From a virus, in the IMG/VR virus record IMGVR_UViG_637000270_000006: a DNA stretch of 64,000 nucleotides. One strand, written 5' to 3'. The notes below the pieces were generated by a model. It made no database searches. It worked only from the letters and a program-made list of their open reading frames with translations, and was not told the origin of the DNA. A program made the position numbers and the translations under genes. Shown here one piece after another: positions 14,189 through 39,778 of the stretch (the stretch's first letter is position 1; the number at the start of each line of letters is the position of its first letter).

Positions 14189-14380
14189 TTAATTTCCCCC
14201 CATACCAGCTTGCACAGGTTGACGACCAGCCCATATTAGGCGGCTATCTTTGAACATGGAATTGAAGGTGCGGCGATCTTGACGTGTAAACGACACTTTG
14301 CCGTAAGGCGTGGTGGAGTACTCTGGAATAATCCAGTAGGTATCAATAAATTCAGAACGAGTTTGGGTCGTAGCAACCAT
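14189..14380 (-). CDS. Icd-like host cell division inhibitor
   Basis: MVATTQ...LIWAGRQPV; directly downstream of C4 target sites as in the P1 c4-icd unit. Confidence 0.65.
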   Translation of the reverse strand: MVATTQTRSEFIDTYWIIPEYSTTPYGKVSFTRQDRRTFNSMFKDSRLIWAGRQPVQAGMGGN

Positions 14381-14387
14381 AGTGTTG

Positions 14388-14475
14388 CCCTCTCTTTGAA
14401 GTTTTCCAAATCTCGCTACCTGCTGTCAAACAGGGTGGCGAGACGTAACAGGGTTGACAGACCGGTCAAAGAGAA
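14388..14475 (-). promoter_or_regulatory. C4 target elements b1/a1 and a2/b2 over the icd SD
   Basis: Minus strand CTCTTTGAC (14465-73) and CTGTCAA (14454-60) are complementary to the C4 a'/b' elements; GTTTGACAG (14423-31) and TTCAAAGAG (14392-400) are the alternative partners next to the SD. Confidence 0.75.
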
Positions 14476-14544
14476 ATCCGGCGAGCCTTACGGCTCCCCC
14501 GTTACATCACGCCATTATTGGGGCGTAACGCTGATTTCGGACGT

Positions 14545-14632
14545 AAAAAACCGCACTAAAGCGGCGTGTTATATCCGCTCTTTGACTTGGGCTGTCAAAC
14601 CCGGCACCCGTTTTGTTAAGGTGCTGAGTAGA
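14545..14632 (-). ncRNA. C4-type antisense RNA (copy 1)
   Basis: Stem GCACCTT..GGGTGC, loop GGG-TTTGACAG-CCC, b' GTCAAAGAG, GCCGC..GCGGT-T6 terminator; upstream TTGACG-N18-TATATT promoter. Confidence 0.75.
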
Positions 14633-24663: not shown

Positions 24664-24849
24664 TTATCTCCATCCGTTCCGCAAACATGATTTGCAGTAA
24701 TCTTTACGCGCCATTGCCCAGCCCAAGTTATGCAGTGATTTAGCTTGCTTGGCAGCCTTGCCCCATTGCAAGATTGCCTCAGCAAACTCACGATTGCTTT
24801 CGAGCGTTTTTGCTAACAGCGCTTCCTTAAAGTACTTCATGTTCTTCAT
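24664..24849 (-). CDS. ANR/PerC-like small regulator
   Basis: LESNREFAEAILQWGKAAK...NLGWAMARKDYC. Confidence 0.6.
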   Translation of the reverse strand: MKNMKYFKEALLAKTLESNREFAEAILQWGKAAKQAKSLHNLGWAMARKDYCKSCLRNGWR

Positions 24850-24854
24850 AACGT

Positions 24855-25058
24855 CTAAATCTCATTGTCGTAGGTGGCATGGCTCATCACGTCCCAGTGC
24901 CGTCCGTTGTCTTTTGATAATGCCCGCCATCTCCGATTAACGGGGATTGATAGATATTTGCGTCGGTAGGTGCGTTTGGCGTAGATGGCACCTGAGCGCC
25001 ACAGGCGGATGAGCATTTTAGCCCGCCGACGGATGTCGACGGGAATTCGGGGTTTCAT
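24855..25058 (-). CDS. ParE-like small phage protein
   Basis: LSIPVNRRWRALSKDNGRHWDVMSHATYD motif. Confidence 0.55.
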   Translation of the reverse strand: MKPRIPVDIRRRAKMLIRLWRSGAIYAKRTYRRKYLSIPVNRRWRALSKDNGRHWDVMSHATYDNEI

Positions 25059-25070
25059 GCACGGTTCCTC

Positions 25071-25820
25071 TTACGATGCGAAGCTGATTTGCTTTTGATG
25101 GGTAAAATCGCCGTTCCAGCTGAGTTTCATTGGCACCTTGCCGCGACGGTATAGGTCATAGATGCGCTCAGCCCCTTTACGCAGTAATACTGGCTGGTAT
25201 TTAATGAAGTCGTCTGCACCGTGAACGCTAATCATGTGTTGGTGCTCAGTCAGGTATTTGTCGCGAGCGTACGACGTGGCCCGCCAACGGATGCCGGATT
25301 TGCTTTCGTTGTAGAGCCAATTGCGTTCAGCGAGCCAGCCGTTAACCTTTTGGGTATTGACGCCGTTGAGCATTTTGCAGAACTGGGTAGAGGTCATGCC
25401 CTCCTTGAATAAGTTCTTGAGGTCGTGGATTTCTGCCTCCTGTTCTTTGTTGACCAATACTAGTGCAGCTTCACTCTTTTTCGATTCCAGCAGGGCTTCC
25501 AAGGCAGAGATGTAGTTTTCCGGCAGGACAGGTTTAGCAGCCAGTTTTTCGAGGTCATGCCAGCGTTTGATAACGCGCATGCGGTGAACAGCGCTATAGC
25601 CAGTGAGCAGGCATTCGGTGTGATCACGGTCGAGTAGATACTCAGTCTGCTGGCGATTCATGGAGTCCAGATAGATGTGCGCAAATTTGCTCACATCTCC
25701 CTGTAGGTCAGAAATCATCCGTTCAATGTCGCGTTTTACATCCGGATGGCGTTTTTCTGTCAATTCGGCAATCTCACGGCTAGACATGGTTAAAATATGT
25801 TCAGAAACTAAATTTTGCAT
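25071..25820 (-). CDS. Rha-domain antirepressor with KilAC-like C-terminus
   Basis: TMSSREIAELTEKRHPDVKRDI...LLTGYS..RMRVIKRWHDLE. Confidence 0.88.
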   Translation of the reverse strand: MQNLVSEHILTMSSREIAELTEKRHPDVKRDIERMISDLQGDVSKFAHIYLDSMNRQQTEYLLDRDHTECLLTGYSAVHRMRVIKRWHDLEKLAAKPVLPENYISALEALLESKKSEAALVLVNKEQEAEIHDLKNLFKEGMTSTQFCKMLNGVNTQKVNGWLAERNWLYNESKSGIRWRATSYARDKYLTEHQHMISVHGADDFIKYQPVLLRKGAERIYDLYRRGKVPMKLSWNGDFTHQKQISFAS

Positions 25821-25864: not shown

Positions 25865-26877
25865 TTATGCCGGTTCGAGGCAGAAAGTTTGAGAGAGTTT
25901 CGCCAGTCCCTTTGGCGTCACTATCACCTGCTCACGAATTTTGTCGGTGCCATCATTACCGGGAATAATCGAGATTTTATGCTCGAGGTAGCCGGACTGG
26001 ATTCTGCTCTGGTAGGCCATCCAGTTCTTGGCACCCACACGGCGATAAATCCAGCCACGCTCCTGGAGGAAGGCGAACAGGTCTTTGGGGCGCACCTGCA
26101 ACTCTTTGGCGGCGTTGGTGATGCACATACCGCCGTCAGATTTGGCGATGCGGTGCAGAGCTTTCACGTCTGGTGCCATTTCCTCTACCTTGCTTTCCAG
26201 AGCAATAACCTTTTCGGTGTAGGTAAGCAGGATGCCGCACATGGCCGCTGGGTCGTTGAGAATCTGAATTGGGTCGGCGGGGATGGCTAACTGTTTTTCC
26301 AGCTCTTGCCAGCGGTCAACCAGACGGGCGGTGAACTCAGGGCAGAGCTGAGCGACGACGATAATGCTATCGCGCTTTCCCTGTTCGCCAATGAAGACAT
26401 AGATTTTTGTTTTCTGAGGTAATTGCGTATTCCGGTGAAAGTGAACGGTCATTCCGGCCCTGTGAACGCTGATTCCGGCAGTGAAATACAGCGTGCTAAT
26501 AATCACATGGGTTTATTCTGTTGAGTTTGTCACGTTCTAGCCCCTGTTTCCTTTGGCAACGGTTCTGTTGCAGGACTGAGGCGGAGCGCAGCGCAGTGAG
26601 CACCGAACAGTCCTGTGGCAGAAGCGTAAGGGGATGTCACGTTTAACTCATTTGGCCGAGTGTTCACCCTCCAGAATATGCGTTCACTTTGCGCCGGAAT
26701 ACGCAGTAATCCTAAGTTATTGATATTTTCGGAATCCTGCATTGCAGGAAGCCGGATAATGCTTTTTGCAGCAAGACGTTCAATGGCTATCTTCACATTG
26801 TCATGGCGGCTACCGACCAGATTGGCAATTTCAAGGCTGGACATGGTTAATGTTTGTGCAATGGTTAAATTTTGCAT
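25865..26877 (-). pseudogene. Rha/ANT antirepressor interrupted by MITE
   Basis: Removing 26424-26705 plus one TSD restores INNLGLPQKTKIYVFIGEQGKRDSIIVVAQLCPEFTARLVDRWQELE; C-terminal ANT domain (MCITNAAKEL...VTPKGL). Confidence 0.88.
26424..26705 (-). mobile_element. 282-bp IS21-type MITE, copy 1
   Basis: TGCGTATTCCG...CGGAATACGCA ends, 5-bp TSD GTAAT (26419-23 and 26706-10); near-identical to 39409-39690. Confidence 0.9.
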
Positions 26878-26947
26878 ACAGATATACCTCGTTAGTAAAA
26901 ACGATGAAGATGTAACCCCGGAGTGTTACCGGGGCAGGAAGGAAATT

Positions 26948-27706
26948 TTAGTGACGTTGCAGGAACTGGCTAACATTTGCTTGTTGCCATTTAGTCAGAG
27001 CTTGGGACATAACATTGGACTGCTGTTGGCTACTATCCTCGATCATCCGTTGCATCTCGCCAAGTACGAGATTTGCATCTTCTTGCTGACGGAGTACACG
27101 CTTTATGGCTTGCCGTTCTGCCTCGAAGATTGTTTGCTTTAGCTGGGTGGTCATGGAGTAGATACGACTGCACTCTTCGGCTAATAACGGTATCTGCCGA
27201 ACTTCAAAGTGCTGTGGAGATGGTACGCCGGTAACGAGCCGTAGAGCATGCCAGATCCCTTGTGTCCATGCTTTTTCAAAACGAAAGCTGTTAGCCATGC
27301 TCCAAACGAGATGAGTTAATCTGCGAAGATTATCGTCGGTGAATAGTTCGGCTGCTGAGGAATTATGTCTCGGCATCGCATAAAGCTCAGCCTCCATGCG
27401 GTTAAATTCTGCGATGTAAGCTTCCTTGAACGCTGCTGCCTTTTTGCCGGTAAAGCCCATGACGAGGAAGACGAAGCCATCTTTGGTCATCTCGAACATC
27501 GGGCGAGGTTTGTTCTGTTCGTCGGTGTATTCTGCCCCCGCAAAATTGCGGGCGCTAAAATCAGCAGAACAATCCAGTGCGCGCAGCTTCTTCAAAACAT
27601 CGTCATGACGTTTTTGAAAATATTCAGCAACGTCAAGCGACGTAGTAACAGCTTTACCGTTATGAATGGTAACTTTTGGTGTGGTAACAGATGTTTGAAG
27701 CGTCAT
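26948..27706 (-). CDS. Rha family regulator with P22-antirepressor-like C-terminus
   Basis: AVTTSLDVAEYFQKRHDDVLK...MTKDGFVFLVMGFTGKKAAAFKEAYIAEFNRME. Confidence 0.92.
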   Translation of the reverse strand: MTLQTSVTTPKVTIHNGKAVTTSLDVAEYFQKRHDDVLKKLRALDCSADFSARNFAGAEYTDEQNKPRPMFEMTKDGFVFLVMGFTGKKAAAFKEAYIAEFNRMEAELYAMPRHNSSAAELFTDDNLRRLTHLVWSMANSFRFEKAWTQGIWHALRLVTGVPSPQHFEVRQIPLLAEECSRIYSMTTQLKQTIFEAERQAIKRVLRQQEDANLVLGEMQRMIEDSSQQQSNVMSQALTKWQQANVSQFLQRH

Positions 27707-27720
27707 GCTGACCTCCAGAT

Positions 27721-27803
27721 AGTGAACTTATAATCACCACCAAGAGGTATCAATCTCTATATTGGTGGTGAACTGAACAGGGTTGATACTACCGGGTTCA
27801 CCG
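27721..27803 (-). promoter_or_regulatory. C4 target elements upstream of the Rha gene
   Basis: Minus strand CGGTGAACC (27795-803) and GTATCAACC (27781-89); GATTGATACC (27746-55) and AGTTCACT (27721-28) next to GGAGG SD. Confidence 0.75.
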
Positions 27804-27865
27804 TCCGGCCTACCTTTCGGTAGCCCTATCCAGTCCACCATTGAGATGTGGCTAGATTGCGACAT

Positions 27866-27955
27866 AAAAAAACACGCTCGCGGCGTGTCAGTCTATCGCG
27901 GTGAATCTCGGCGGGGTATCAATCCCGGCACCTGAATTTGCAGATGCAGAGTGAC
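27866..27955 (-). ncRNA. C4-type antisense RNA (copy 2)
   Basis: Stem GCATCTG..CAGGTGC, loop CGGGA-TTGATAC-CCCG, b' GATTCACCG, ACACGC..GCGTGT-T6 terminator; TTGACG-N18-TATAGT promoter. Confidence 0.75.
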
Positions 27956-28026
27956 TATAGCGTATGGGGTGATCTTCCGTCAATACGATTGCTGGGTTAC
28001 ACTTGCTCAAAAGAGGAGTAACCCCT

Positions 28027-28361
28027 ATGGGTCAAGTTGCGTTCGATACATTGAAATTCGTTGAAACGCTGGAAACTGCTGGCTTGCCTAAAGATCAGGC
28101 CAAGGCAATTTCGCTTGCGGTTCGTGAATCGCATGAGGCCGTCGATGTTGCTACCAAGCGCGACCTTGAGGACGTACGCAAGGAAATTGACGCCAGATTC
28201 GATAAGGTTGACGCTCGCTTCGATAAGCATGAAGCTCTAATGCAAGCCCGCTTTGACAAAATTGAGGCCCGTTTCGATAAGCTTGGCTTACAGATGACCA
28301 TCCGGCTCGGTTAATGGTCGCTGCCGGTGTCAGTATCATCGCCGCCATTCTCAAAATGTGA
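28027..28361 (+). pseudogene. DUF1640/CCDC90-family protein, frameshift before the C-terminal TM
   Basis: MGQVAFDTLKFVETLETAG; GGT TAA TGG looks like GGT TTA ATG minus one base; TM (MVAAGVSIIAAILKM) continues to TGA 28359. Confidence 0.8.
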
Positions 28362-28469
28362 CGCTGACCTGTGCGCTATAGCGCATGGGTTATCCTTGCG
28401 TCAATGAGGGCGGGGGACTTCTGTTTTTGGTTGCTGTATATGGGCAACAAATTTGCAGATGAATAATAG

Positions 28470-29162
28470 TTATCCAATAACTCGAATTGAGGGAACTAAC
28501 AGATTTGTCGGTATGTAGCAATCAAGTTCAATATCTCTGCAAAACTCTCGAAATTGGTAGATGTTATTAACGCGTGTCTTTTGATACAGATTACATAACC
28601 TGTTTTCTACGGTTCTATGAGAAATTTTTAATCGTTTCGCTGTTTCTTTACTGCTTAATCCATGATAAGTAAAGAATATTACTTCAAGTTCGCGTTCTGT
28701 AAAATAGCTATGAGGCATATTCATGGTTAATGTTATGGGAGATTCGCCATCTGCATATTGCAGAGGTGAGAAAAATCTGCATAGCTTAGCTTCTGCCATA
28801 GTACCAACCACATGGCCCTTATCGTTGAAGAAAGGTTGGATATCAAAAATATAAGGCTGGACAATGTCTTCACGACCAAAAGCAGAGGTAATGAGTAAAG
28901 ATATCGCAGACTTGTTGTCGATCACGTTTTTATCATGTTGGTAAATATCGTCTAAAAATATTGCCATCCAATGATGTATGTCTGTTATCTGCTTACCTTC
29001 AATGTTAAAACCTTTCGGCAAATCCAGTAATTCAGCCATCGCCGGATTGATATAGGCATATCGGTGCTCACTATCTCGAATATGACATGGATTGGGGTTG
29101 TTTTCGCACATATAGATAATCTGATCAGAAATAGCTTCTCGCTTTAGTGCTACACCACTCAT
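28470..29162 (-). CDS. PAS-domain LuxR-family transcriptional regulator
   Basis: PAS fold (PCHIRDSEHRYAYINPA...PFFNDKGHVVG) plus HTH FTERELEVIFF..LSSKETAKRLKISHRTVENR. Confidence 0.9.
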   Translation of the reverse strand: MSGVALKREAISDQIIYMCENNPNPCHIRDSEHRYAYINPAMAELLDLPKGFNIEGKQITDIHHWMAIFLDDIYQHDKNVIDNKSAISLLITSAFGREDIVQPYIFDIQPFFNDKGHVVGTMAEAKLCRFFSPLQYADGESPITLTMNMPHSYFTERELEVIFFTYHGLSSKETAKRLKISHRTVENRLCNLYQKTRVNNIYQFREFCRDIELDCYIPTNLLVPSIRVIG

Positions 29163-33831: not shown

Positions 33832-34278
33832 TCAAATGATTTTCTTAATTTTTCTTGCCTCTATGATTTCTTCAAATAGTTGATCAACTTCATCTTTCCT
33901 TTCACTAATTTGGTTTAAAAAGATCTCCTTATCCCTTTTGGGCAGGCTAGAAAACATATCAAGAAGTCTTTCTTCTTCCCTACTCAAATGTCGAGTTTGA
34001 GTAGGCTGTATAGATGCGGATACTTCTGCAATTTTTTCTGCAAGCGTTGGACTAAAATCATTAACACATACACCTAACAATTTAGCAAATTTTGCTGCAT
34101 TGCTCATATTTAAAGGATTTACTCCGTTTAAAAGCTGAGCTACAGCGCTTTGCCTCATACCCAGCTCATAAGCTATCGACTCTTGTGAAAAGCCTAATTG
34201 TTTTTTCTTTGACTCAAAAATGCTCTTGAGCCTCATCGCATCTTCATGCTGTTCAGGACTTAACGGTTTCTTTTTCAT
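33832..34278 (-). CDS. cI: CI repressor (lambda-like HTH, no S24 peptidase domain)
   Basis: MKKKPLSPEQ..RLKSIFESKKKQLGFSQESIAYELG..QSAVAQLLNG..FSPTLA; only 148 aa. Confidence 0.9.
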   Translation of the reverse strand: MKKKPLSPEQHEDAMRLKSIFESKKKQLGFSQESIAYELGMRQSAVAQLLNGVNPLNMSNAAKFAKLLGVCVNDFSPTLAEKIAEVSASIQPTQTRHLSREEERLLDMFSSLPKRDKEIFLNQISERKDEVDQLFEEIIEARKIKKII

Positions 34279-39288: not shown

Positions 39289-39778
39289 AAAAGAGATTAC
39301 AGAACACCAGCATCACTTTTCGGATGATGCAGCATTGCCTGTTCAGGCCGACCAAGCGTTCGCGCAACAAAGTCCGCGAGATACTGGGCGAGGATGAAGT
39401 AAAAACCTTGCGTATTCCGACGCAAAGTGAACGCATATTCTGGAGGGTGAACACTCGGCCAAATGAGTTAAACGTGACATCCCCTTACGCTTCTGCCACA
39501 GGACTGTTCGGTGCTCACTGCGCTGCGCTCCGCCTCAGTCCTGCAACAGAACCGTTGCCAAAGGAAACAGGGGCTAGAACGTGACAAACTCAACAGAATA
39601 AACCCATGTGATTATTAGCACGCTGTATTTCACTGCCGGAATCAGCGTTCACAGGGCCGGAATGACCGTTCACTTTCACCGGAATACGCAAACCTACGAC
39701 TACAGCGCTCATATTCGTGATGTGCGGATGATGCGCGCTCGTACTCGGACTTCAAAAATAGATTTACAAGCTCAGTAA
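39285..39778 (+). pseudogene. NinE-like gene interrupted by MITE
   Basis: Removing MITE and one TSD restores ...EVKTYDYSAHIRDVRMMRAR. Confidence 0.7.
39409..39690 (+). mobile_element. 282-bp IS21-type MITE, copy 2
   Basis: Same ends as copy 1, inverted orientation; 5-bp TSD AACCT (39404-08 and 39691-95). Confidence 0.9.

Follow-up and report, generated by a model that had tools for sequence, protein, structure and literature searches.

What regulates the array of antirepressor genes in an integrated prophage, and is the regulator distinct from its relatives in the same genome? These questions are raised by a locus in the 64,000-nucleotide (nt) stretch of viral DNA recorded as IMGVR_UViG_637000270_000006 (referred to in its entirety as the window), in which a candidate RNA switch occupies the minus strand from position 27983 down to position 27704 and leads into a gene of the Rha family. 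An initial annotation, made from the letters alone, had described the locus as a C4-type antisense RNA switch wired to an antirepressor array and had proposed that it forms a natural orthogonal pair with a second switch at about 14.4 kb. We conclude that the 27.8-kb region is probably a three-part RNA switch, of the type known from immI of phage P1 and from isrK of the Salmonella prophage Gifsy-1, that controls translation of the prophage antirepressor operon. The switch is genuine and belongs to the P1 C4/IsrK family, of which it is an ordinary representative with a recognition key of its own; taken by itself, the locus adds one further case to a kind of phage immunity RNA that is already well described and changes little. 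Two facts are more notable. One is the 20-fold expansion of such modules, with unique keys, in the one genome to which the window belongs (4,292,502 bases in 4 contigs); the other is that the IsrK and P1 systems are the same.

Anatomy of the 27.8-kb switch

The anatomy of the switch and its family membership were read directly from the DNA. The initial annotation had placed a C4-family switch at 27721-27990 and had suggested a search with covariance models; in that search, the Rfam C4 model (RF01695; gathering cut-off, 45 bits) matched at full length (positions 1 to 87 of 87) with 70.0 bits. The matched RNA is 85 nt long and lies on the minus strand at 27845-27761. It is the middle element of the locus, and so the promoter-proximal RNA with two stems, which had been taken for C4, must be assigned differently. 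That RNA is the leader: the isrK model (RF01394; cut-off, 50 bits) matched it with 64.9 bits at 27947-27867, over positions 1 to 77 of 77, and the c4-a1b1 model (RF03163; cut-off, 46.7 bits) gave 45.8 bits at 27960-27908, a score 0.9 under its cut-off for a region where the overlapping isrK match passes.

The promoter, the two stems and the terminator reported earlier are all present on the minus strand, as judged by consensus scan and by reading. The sigma-70-like promoter, TTGACG (27983-27978)-N18-TATAGT (27959-27954), has 10 of 12 consensus matches, was the sole promoter-like site in a consensus scan of 27500-28500, and is 93 to 95% identical to the promoters of other such modules in the genome. 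No LexA site (CTGT-N8-ACAG, with one mismatch allowed), which would point to LexA control of the kind seen for the Gifsy antirepressors, was found near it. The spacing from the −10 box and the start of the isrK match place the putative transcription start near 27947. From there, the model matches, the predicted fold and the terminator delimit a leader RNA of ~80 nt (27947-27864), which begins with a hairpin (27947-27928). The element a1 (UUGAUAC, 27922-27916) is in the loop of the second hairpin, and b1 (UUCACCG, 27905-27899) is single-stranded; each is an exact 7/7 complement of its counterpart, a' or b', in the C4 RNA. A terminator scan found an intrinsic terminator, consisting of a stem at 27889-27871 and a U run. 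Both a1 and b1 are accessible in the predicted leader fold, with opening costs of 0.2 and 0.8 kcal/mol, respectively. The initial annotation had thus given the motifs TTGATAC and TTCACCG and their coordinates correctly but had labeled them a' and b' of C4, when in fact they are a1 and b1 of the IsrK-type leader. Since these elements have the same sense as the target elements a2 and b2, the leader RNA cannot pair with that target.

The C4 RNA is predicted to fold into a long closing stem that encloses two hairpins, and this canonical structure (−41.6 kcal/mol) is within 0.7 kcal/mol of the minimum free energy structure (−42.3 kcal/mol). The loop of the second hairpin, ACGGUGAAC (27804-27796), holds b'; it contains CGGUGAAC, the complement of UUCACCG and GUUCAC(U). 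The a' segment, AGUAUCAA (27790-27783), is unpaired and contains GUAUCAA, the complement of UUGAUAC. The predicted opening costs are 0.8 kcal/mol for a' and 0.9 kcal/mol for b'. The sequence also shows an acceptor-like stem with CCA after it.

Beyond the C4 match, a second set of complements leads into the first gene. The element a2 (UUGAUAC, 27753-27747) begins 8 nt past the C4 match and is an exact 7-nt complement of a', and b2 (GUUCAC[U], 27727-27721) can form six Watson-Crick pairs and one G-U pair with b' (duplex energy, −8.1 kcal/mol). The end of b2 is separated by 4 nt from the Shine-Dalgarno (SD) sequence GGAGG (27716-27712), which precedes the AUG of the first gene (27706-27704). Relative to C4, the complements of a' are therefore located at −77 and +8 and those of b' at −60 and +34. 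The layout that had been described, b1-a1 followed by a2-b2 over the SD, needs correction: the order in the transcript is a1, b1, [b', a'], a2, b2, and b2 stops short of the SD.

We folded the leader and C4, as the initial annotation had recommended. The elements a1, b1, a', and b' were all unpaired, with opening costs of at most 0.9 kcal/mol, and in the fold predicted for the read-through transcript a1 was paired with a' and b1 with b'. The duplex of b' with b1 (−10.4 kcal/mol) is slightly stronger than that with b2. The a2 element is predicted to sit in the loop of a small AGAG/CUCU hairpin with a stem of 3 to 4 bp, and the stem flanking a2 co-varies between modules (GAG/CTC and AAG/CTT; CCG/CGG in Gifsy-1). 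When the mRNA leader was folded in isolation, an anti-SD hairpin appeared instead. We rejected it because Gifsy-1 does not conserve this pairing and because CUC beside a2 co-varies with GAG on its other side, which favors the small a2 hairpin. The segment GGUGGUGA, conserved after the a2 hairpin, complements the 3' strand of the C4 closing stem, and the two may form an alternative pairing in the unprocessed transcript.

A second, orphan switch promoter (TTGACG-N18-TATAGC) lies nearby on the minus strand at 28374-28404 of the window. It shares 100% identity over 31 nt with the promoter belonging to the module at chromosome position 2,063,161 and 94% identity over 53 nt with the one at 3,106,295. 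The homology stops just past the −10 box, and the promoter points toward the intact switch, antisense into a plus-strand DUF1640-like gene (28027-28314). It is probably a recombination scar.

Recognition keys of the 27.8-kb switch and its relatives

The second switch in the window is located in a neighboring phage region. Its C4 RNA (14431-14519, minus strand; 74.8 bits) has the recognition elements a' CUGUCAA and b' UCUCUUUGA, and the matching sites are at 14592-14598 (a1), 14578-14586 (b1), 14423-14429 (a2), and 14391-14399 (b2). The leader-side motifs are UUGACAG and UCAAAGAG, exactly as the initial annotation had given them in DNA letters (TTGACAG and UCAAAGAG). Upstream of this C4, the isrK model gave only a weak match, below the cut-off (32.5 bits at 14545-14624). 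The module is P1-like, with 73% identity to P1 c4-icd. An integrase remnant and a tRNA fragment separate the 14.4-kb region from the 27.8-kb region, an arrangement that fits two separate phage-derived regions.

To compare pairing, we calculated duplex energies for the two exposed segments of C4, a' and b', with each of the downstream leaders and added them up. RNAcofold, which does not include loop-loop contacts, returned only trivial end pairing between C4 and either the leader or the IsrK-like RNA. The 27.8-kb C4 is predicted to pair with its own leader at −15.0 kcal/mol, compared to −5.6 kcal/mol for the 14.4-kb leader, and the 14.4-kb C4 is predicted to pair with its own leader at −19.9 kcal/mol, compared to −7.8 kcal/mol for the 27.8-kb leader. 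The claim that each RNA fits only its own targets thus holds for this pair, which is predicted to be non-cross-reacting. It does not extend to every C4 in the genome: the C4 at chromosome position 2,901,786 scores −16.9 kcal/mol on the 27.8-kb leader, compared to −15.0 kcal/mol for the cognate RNA. The b' loop of that C4 complements AUCUGGA at the SD (27712-27722), and its a' contributes a further, partial match next to a2. This match could possibly reflect cross-regulation, or it could be due to chance. A GGUGA-type b element is common to the 27.8-kb module and three other modules.

The pair is, moreover, a small part of a larger set. In the genome, 20 C4 matches exceed the cut-off, and there are 18 isrK matches, every one of them a short way upstream of a C4. 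No two of the 20 modules share an a'/b' combination, and the key of the 27.8-kb module differs from that of the 14.4-kb module, 13 kb away, and from those of the other 18. In nearly every module, an exact complement of a' is found ~77 nt upstream and another ~5 nt downstream of C4, and complements of b' are found ~60 nt upstream and, beside the SD, ~34 nt downstream. Although ~15 different a sequences are represented, almost every module has an a1 and an a2 that both equal the reverse complement of its a', and b2 lies next to the SD in all intact modules. For 18 of the 20 C4 RNAs, no leader pairs better than the cognate one, the two exceptions being plasmid copies that have lost their downstream sites. 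Mean energies were −17.8 kcal/mol for cognate pairs and −8.5 ± 2.7 kcal/mol for noncognate pairs, and none of 200,000 permutations of partners reached the observed cognate sum (z = −13). The predicted energies and the co-variation of the three copies of each element, which the initial annotation had noted, are direct results of this comparison across the 20 modules. Of 150 other genomes sampled from the same order, 18 contained at least one C4 match, with a maximum of 8 in a single genome.

Several members of the set depart from the general pattern. In the module at C1:2663775-2664080, the leader elements a1 and b1 (UUCGUAG and GAUUGUC) are of the type found at chromosome position 3,395,263, whereas C4 and a2/b2 use another key (ACGCUAA/UUAGCGU), and the first gene is truncated to 51 amino acids (aa). 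Because the leader key of this chimera differs from its C4 key, the decoy no longer matches its own antisense RNA. Two inverted modules that lie 4.4 kb apart (C1:2897253-2897560 and C1:2901646-2901953) have near-identical scaffolds and the same a element. In this pair (chromosome positions 2,897,333 and 2,901,786), b differs at b1, b', and b2 all together, a pattern that marks the pair, as far as its sequence tells, as a natural specificity switch on a constant background. The plasmid copies of C4 (C2:50554-50859 and C3:16024-16329) keep the RNA scaffold and an a1-like site; they have no a2/b2, no SD-linked downstream gene, and no isrK-type terminator.

We put forward only tentatively, at somewhat less than even probability, the broader proposal that ~18 intact, mutually non-cross-reacting triplets of decoy, antisense RNA, and target, built on one scaffold, coexist in this single 4.29-Mb genome. 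If it is true, the RNA immunity keys of co-resident prophages would be strongly pressed to diverge, and the genome would offer a ready-made natural library of orthogonal three-part riboregulators. Twenty natural variants of one scaffold, with the chimeric module and the neighbor pair that differs only in b among them, make a compact test set for the question of how few base pairs give specificity to loop-loop antisense pairing, and they bear on whether co-residence drives prophage heteroimmunity. The natural orthogonal pair proposed for 27.8 and 14.4 kb is upheld as a prediction, within a family of 20 members.

The antirepressor operon and its prophage

Pfam and PHROGs searches agreed with the initial annotation that no icd-like open reading frame (ORF) follows the 27.8-kb switch, that Rha comes first, and that an antirepressor array follows. 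Gene 1 (26948-27706, minus strand) is open, encodes a 252-aa Rha-family regulator or antirepressor (Phage_pRha, 9.2e-31), and falls among Rha-like regulator and antirepressor families in PHROGs. Gene 2 (25865-26877, minus strand), for an antirepressor with Rha-N and KilAC (ANT) domains, is split by a miniature inverted-repeat transposable element (MITE) and has Pfam matches on both halves; without the 282-bp element (26424-26705) and one 5-bp duplication, a single frame of ~246 aa results. Gene 3 (25071-25820, minus strand) is open and encodes a 249-aa antirepressor with Rha (Phage_pRha, 7.7e-15) and ANT (4.2e-8) domains; it belongs to PHROG 63, antirepressor Ant (9e-54). The ANT domain is thus found in genes 2 and 3. 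Direct wiring to an antirepressor without icd is not unusual. The same arrangement is found in Gifsy-1 (anrP), in the APSE phages (BRO/Rha), and in most of the 20 modules; a module without icd whose first gene is Rha, BRO, or another gene is the common form in this genome and in public phages.

Further downstream on the same strand are an excisionase-like helix-turn-helix (HTH) gene, an integrase in two ORFs, and a tRNA-Arg fragment. Upstream of the switch are the plus-strand DUF1640-like gene, a PAS-LuxR gene, and recombination genes, past which lie N, a gene for a 148-aa CI (33832-34278) that has an HTH but no peptidase (cleavage) domain, and Cro. The combination of N, an HTH-only CI, and Cro identifies the element as a lambda-like prophage of the Gifsy kind. 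In such a prophage, induction would be driven by antirepressors and not by CI cleavage.

Some features of the neighborhood were noted in passing. The MITE occurs in two copies in the whole genome, both in the window (26424-26705 and 39409-39690), inverted and 99.6% identical. A gene for a 67-aa ParE-like toxin (Pfam, 2.5e-18) and a 61-aa partner gene, both open, occupy 24664-25058 of the window on the same strand as the array, between the antirepressor array and the excisionase gene. In the 14.4-kb region, C4 is followed by an icd-like ORF of 63 aa (14189-14380), a Derepression-family gene, and genes for a phage O-like initiator, a DnaC-like loader, and Dam. An antirepressor gene is not next after that C4; a KilA-N gene is upstream, as in APSE.

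Proposed mechanism and alternative explanations

By analogy with homologous systems, we propose the following for expression, processing, repression, and decoy action at the 27.8-kb switch. Transcripts would start near 27947 from a promoter that looks constitutive, and most would stop at the leader terminator, giving an IsrK-like RNA of ~80 nt with a1 in a loop and b1 single-stranded. Read-through would yield the 85-nt C4 together with the Rha mRNA. The exposed a' and b' of C4, complementary to a1/b1 and to a2/b2 alike, could then bind a2/b2 and block ribosome entry at the neighboring SD of the first Rha gene, and, as in P1, this block would silence the downstream antirepressor genes too. Because the leader has the same sequences as the mRNA target, it would compete for C4 and, either in cis or as a separate short RNA, may relieve the C4 block in the way that IsrK does in Gifsy-1. 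The Rha and Ant antirepressors produced would inactivate the short, noncleavable CI of the same lambda-like prophage. Specificity would be set by the 7-nt a element and the b element of 7 to 9 nt.

A different division of labor was implied by the initial annotation, in which the promoter-proximal, terminated RNA would serve as antisense repressor by pairing with a2/b2 over the SD. That RNA is indeed the only one with its own promoter and terminator. However, its UUGAUAC and UUCACCG are identical in sense to a2/b2 and not complementary to them, so that the topology is refuted by strand sense; Rfam places C4 at 27845-27761 and identifies the first RNA as isrK/c4-a1b1, and the homologous IsrK activates translation (PMC4825925). 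We give this topology practically no credence. It is also conceivable that C4 acts mainly on transcription, like the CI RNA of phage P4, with pairing to a1/b1 in the nascent leader setting termination and a2/b2 playing a secondary part. Only 10 nt separate b1 from the terminator stem, the pairing of C4 with a1/b1 is no weaker than that with a2/b2 (compare the b1 and b2 energies above), and the Gifsy-1 authors raised this idea for STnc1160, the RNA that follows IsrK in Gifsy-1, and likened IsrK to P4 seqA (PMC4825925). Against it, the P1 annotation gives repression of icd-ant translation as the role of a2/b2, constitutive STnc1160 failed to counteract IsrK in Gifsy-1 (PMC4825925), and the position of b2 beside the SD is conserved in all intact modules. 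We consider a mainly transcriptional mode of action improbable.

The proposal that the locus is an inert relic requires more discussion. According to this explanation, the RNA elements are intact only because the prophage decayed recently, and nothing useful is regulated in this host-restricted bacterium. Signs of decay are plain in the interrupted gene 2, the integrase in two ORFs, the truncated genes of 28 to 51 aa after sister modules, the loss of downstream targets in the two plasmid copies, and the one chimeric module with a mismatched leader. At the 27.8-kb locus itself, however, no flaw is seen in the promoter, the terminator, b1, or any of the three copies of a, and genes 1 and 3 have open frames. 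In addition, contigs assembled from RNA libraries in three studies contain 27422-27937 or more: they span from 27422 to 27937, 27979, or 28067 and thus cover the leader, C4, and the 5' end of Rha. All of these contigs start at 27422, as does a contig of unrecorded library type, which suggests that their ends are probably repeat boundaries and not transcript ends. Given such ends and possible DNA carry-over, the contigs show presence in RNA libraries only and are not proof of transcription; a gap in the RNA-run contigs over 26918-27361 was rejected as evidence of termination. On balance, we regard an inert relic as unlikely, though as an explanation to be taken seriously.

A translational switch of the P1/IsrK type therefore remains the reading that we prefer, and several observations weigh against it. 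Decay of the genome is one, evident in the MITE-split gene 2, the divided integrase, and the truncated genes that follow many sister modules. The target site is modest: b2 offers only six Watson-Crick pairs and one G-U pair and ends 4 nt before the SD, and the cognate energy of −15.0 kcal/mol is the weakest among the intact modules. The pairing energies are themselves plain duplex sums, RNAcofold being unable to represent loop-loop contacts. The mRNA leader in isolation is predicted to sequester the SD that it carries (opening cost, 9.4 kcal/mol), so that C4 might not be needed for silencing, although that pairing has no conservation in Gifsy-1. Gene 1 showed no similarity to Gifsy-1 AnrP by BLASTP, and its antirepressor role is thus assigned solely by family annotation. 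Finally, the RNA libraries are available as assembled contigs, from which strand, level, transcript ends, and processing sites are not readable.

Comparison with known systems

The closest classical counterpart is immI of P1 and P7 (Citron and Schuster 1990, as cited in PMC2864571). The C4 RNA is of the same family (68.8 bits in P1, compared to 70 bits here), and the order of promoter, a1, b1, C4, a2, and b2 is the same, with near-identical spacing; in the annotated P1 immI, a2 starts 4 nt past C4 and b2 ends 11 nt before the start codon. Two leader hairpins are likewise present in P1, as is a terminator-like hairpin with a U run, and the P1 sequence scores 51 bits with c4-a1b1 and 35 bits (subthreshold) with isrK. 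P1 C4 is processed to ~77 nt by RNase P and acts in trans to repress translation. The differences lie in the surroundings and in the key. The P1 operon consists of icd followed by ant1/ant2, whereas here Rha comes first, followed by two Rha-ANT genes, with no icd; P1 has a C1 operator and a second promoter near the main one, and neither is present here; and P1 is a plasmid prophage, whereas the element described here is an integrated lambda-like prophage. Recognition also differs, with a' GUAUCAA here and CUGUCAA in P1. Heteroimmunity of P1 and P7 is known to operate through short a and b elements (PMC12197685), and the c4-a1b1 motif was already listed in 2010 (PMC2864571). No match to the switch locus was found in E. 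coli genomes.

At the DNA level, the module as a whole has its best match (78% identity over 95% of its length) in the APSE phages of Hamiltonella (Rouil et al. 2020, PMC7313666; LR794152), where the order is KilA-N, isrK, C4, BRO, and Rha. As here, the two RNAs are annotated side by side and Rha is among the downstream genes, and APSE-2 has a similar integrase and tRNA-Arg attachment fragment. In APSE-2, the a element is UUGAGAC; the APSE b element also differs from that reported here, and a BRO-N gene comes first. The APSE authors sought targets elsewhere, and the leader was not described as a decoy (PMC7313666).

The CI RNA of P4, with seqA and seqC, resembles the present design in that a processed small RNA lies between upstream and downstream complementary sites, and the Gifsy-1 authors cite it as a structural analogue of IsrK/STnc1160 (PMC4825925). 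It differs in acting by premature transcription termination and in belonging to another Rfam family.

The most instructive comparison is with Gifsy-1 of Salmonella (Hershko-Shalev et al. 2016, PMC4825925), in which isrK is followed by C4 and then by an antirepressor-type gene, without icd, and in which the a1/b1, a'/b', a2/b2 design is the same. At the Gifsy-1 locus (NC_010392), the isrK model scores 79.3 bits and is followed by a C4 match of 69 bits over "orf45"/STnc1160 (locus positions 1597-1680). Both orf45 start codons are located where the closing stem of C4 has its 5' strand. The terminator of IsrK is leaky, with the ~80-nt species processed from a read-through transcript; the read-through mRNA is translationally silent, and IsrK supplied in trans activates anrP translation 139-fold (PMC4825925). 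Hfq binding and trans-activation are known for the Salmonella IsrK only (PMC4825925). The two loci differ in three respects. The Gifsy-1 switch follows Q, whereas the switch described here is near int; AnrP and the Rha protein are dissimilar; and the Gifsy-1 middle element was published as a 45-codon ORF coupled to anrP. We considered an upstream ORF of this kind and rejected it: the frame that starts at the conserved AUGGUGG is 35 codons long in the present locus, and 27 nt lie between its stop and the Rha start. Across the 20 modules, this frame ranges from 2 to >74 codons, and its scattered stops make a coding role unlikely.

The Gifsy-1 study compares the IsrK system with P4 CI RNA and makes no mention of P1 C4 (PMC4825925). 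No link between IsrK and P1 C4 was found in the literature searched, and a 2025 review also keeps the two separate. Judged by model scores and by the arrangement of pairing sites, however, the Salmonella IsrK and P1 C4 systems are the same device: orf45/STnc1160 scores as a C4 RNA, and IsrK is the a1b1 leader. The published exchanges G28A/C162U and G31A/C159U, numbered from the IsrK start, fall exactly on pairs between a1 (UUGGCGU) and a' (ACGCCAA) (PMC4825925), and the published IsrK mutants can be read directly as tests of a1:a' pairing.

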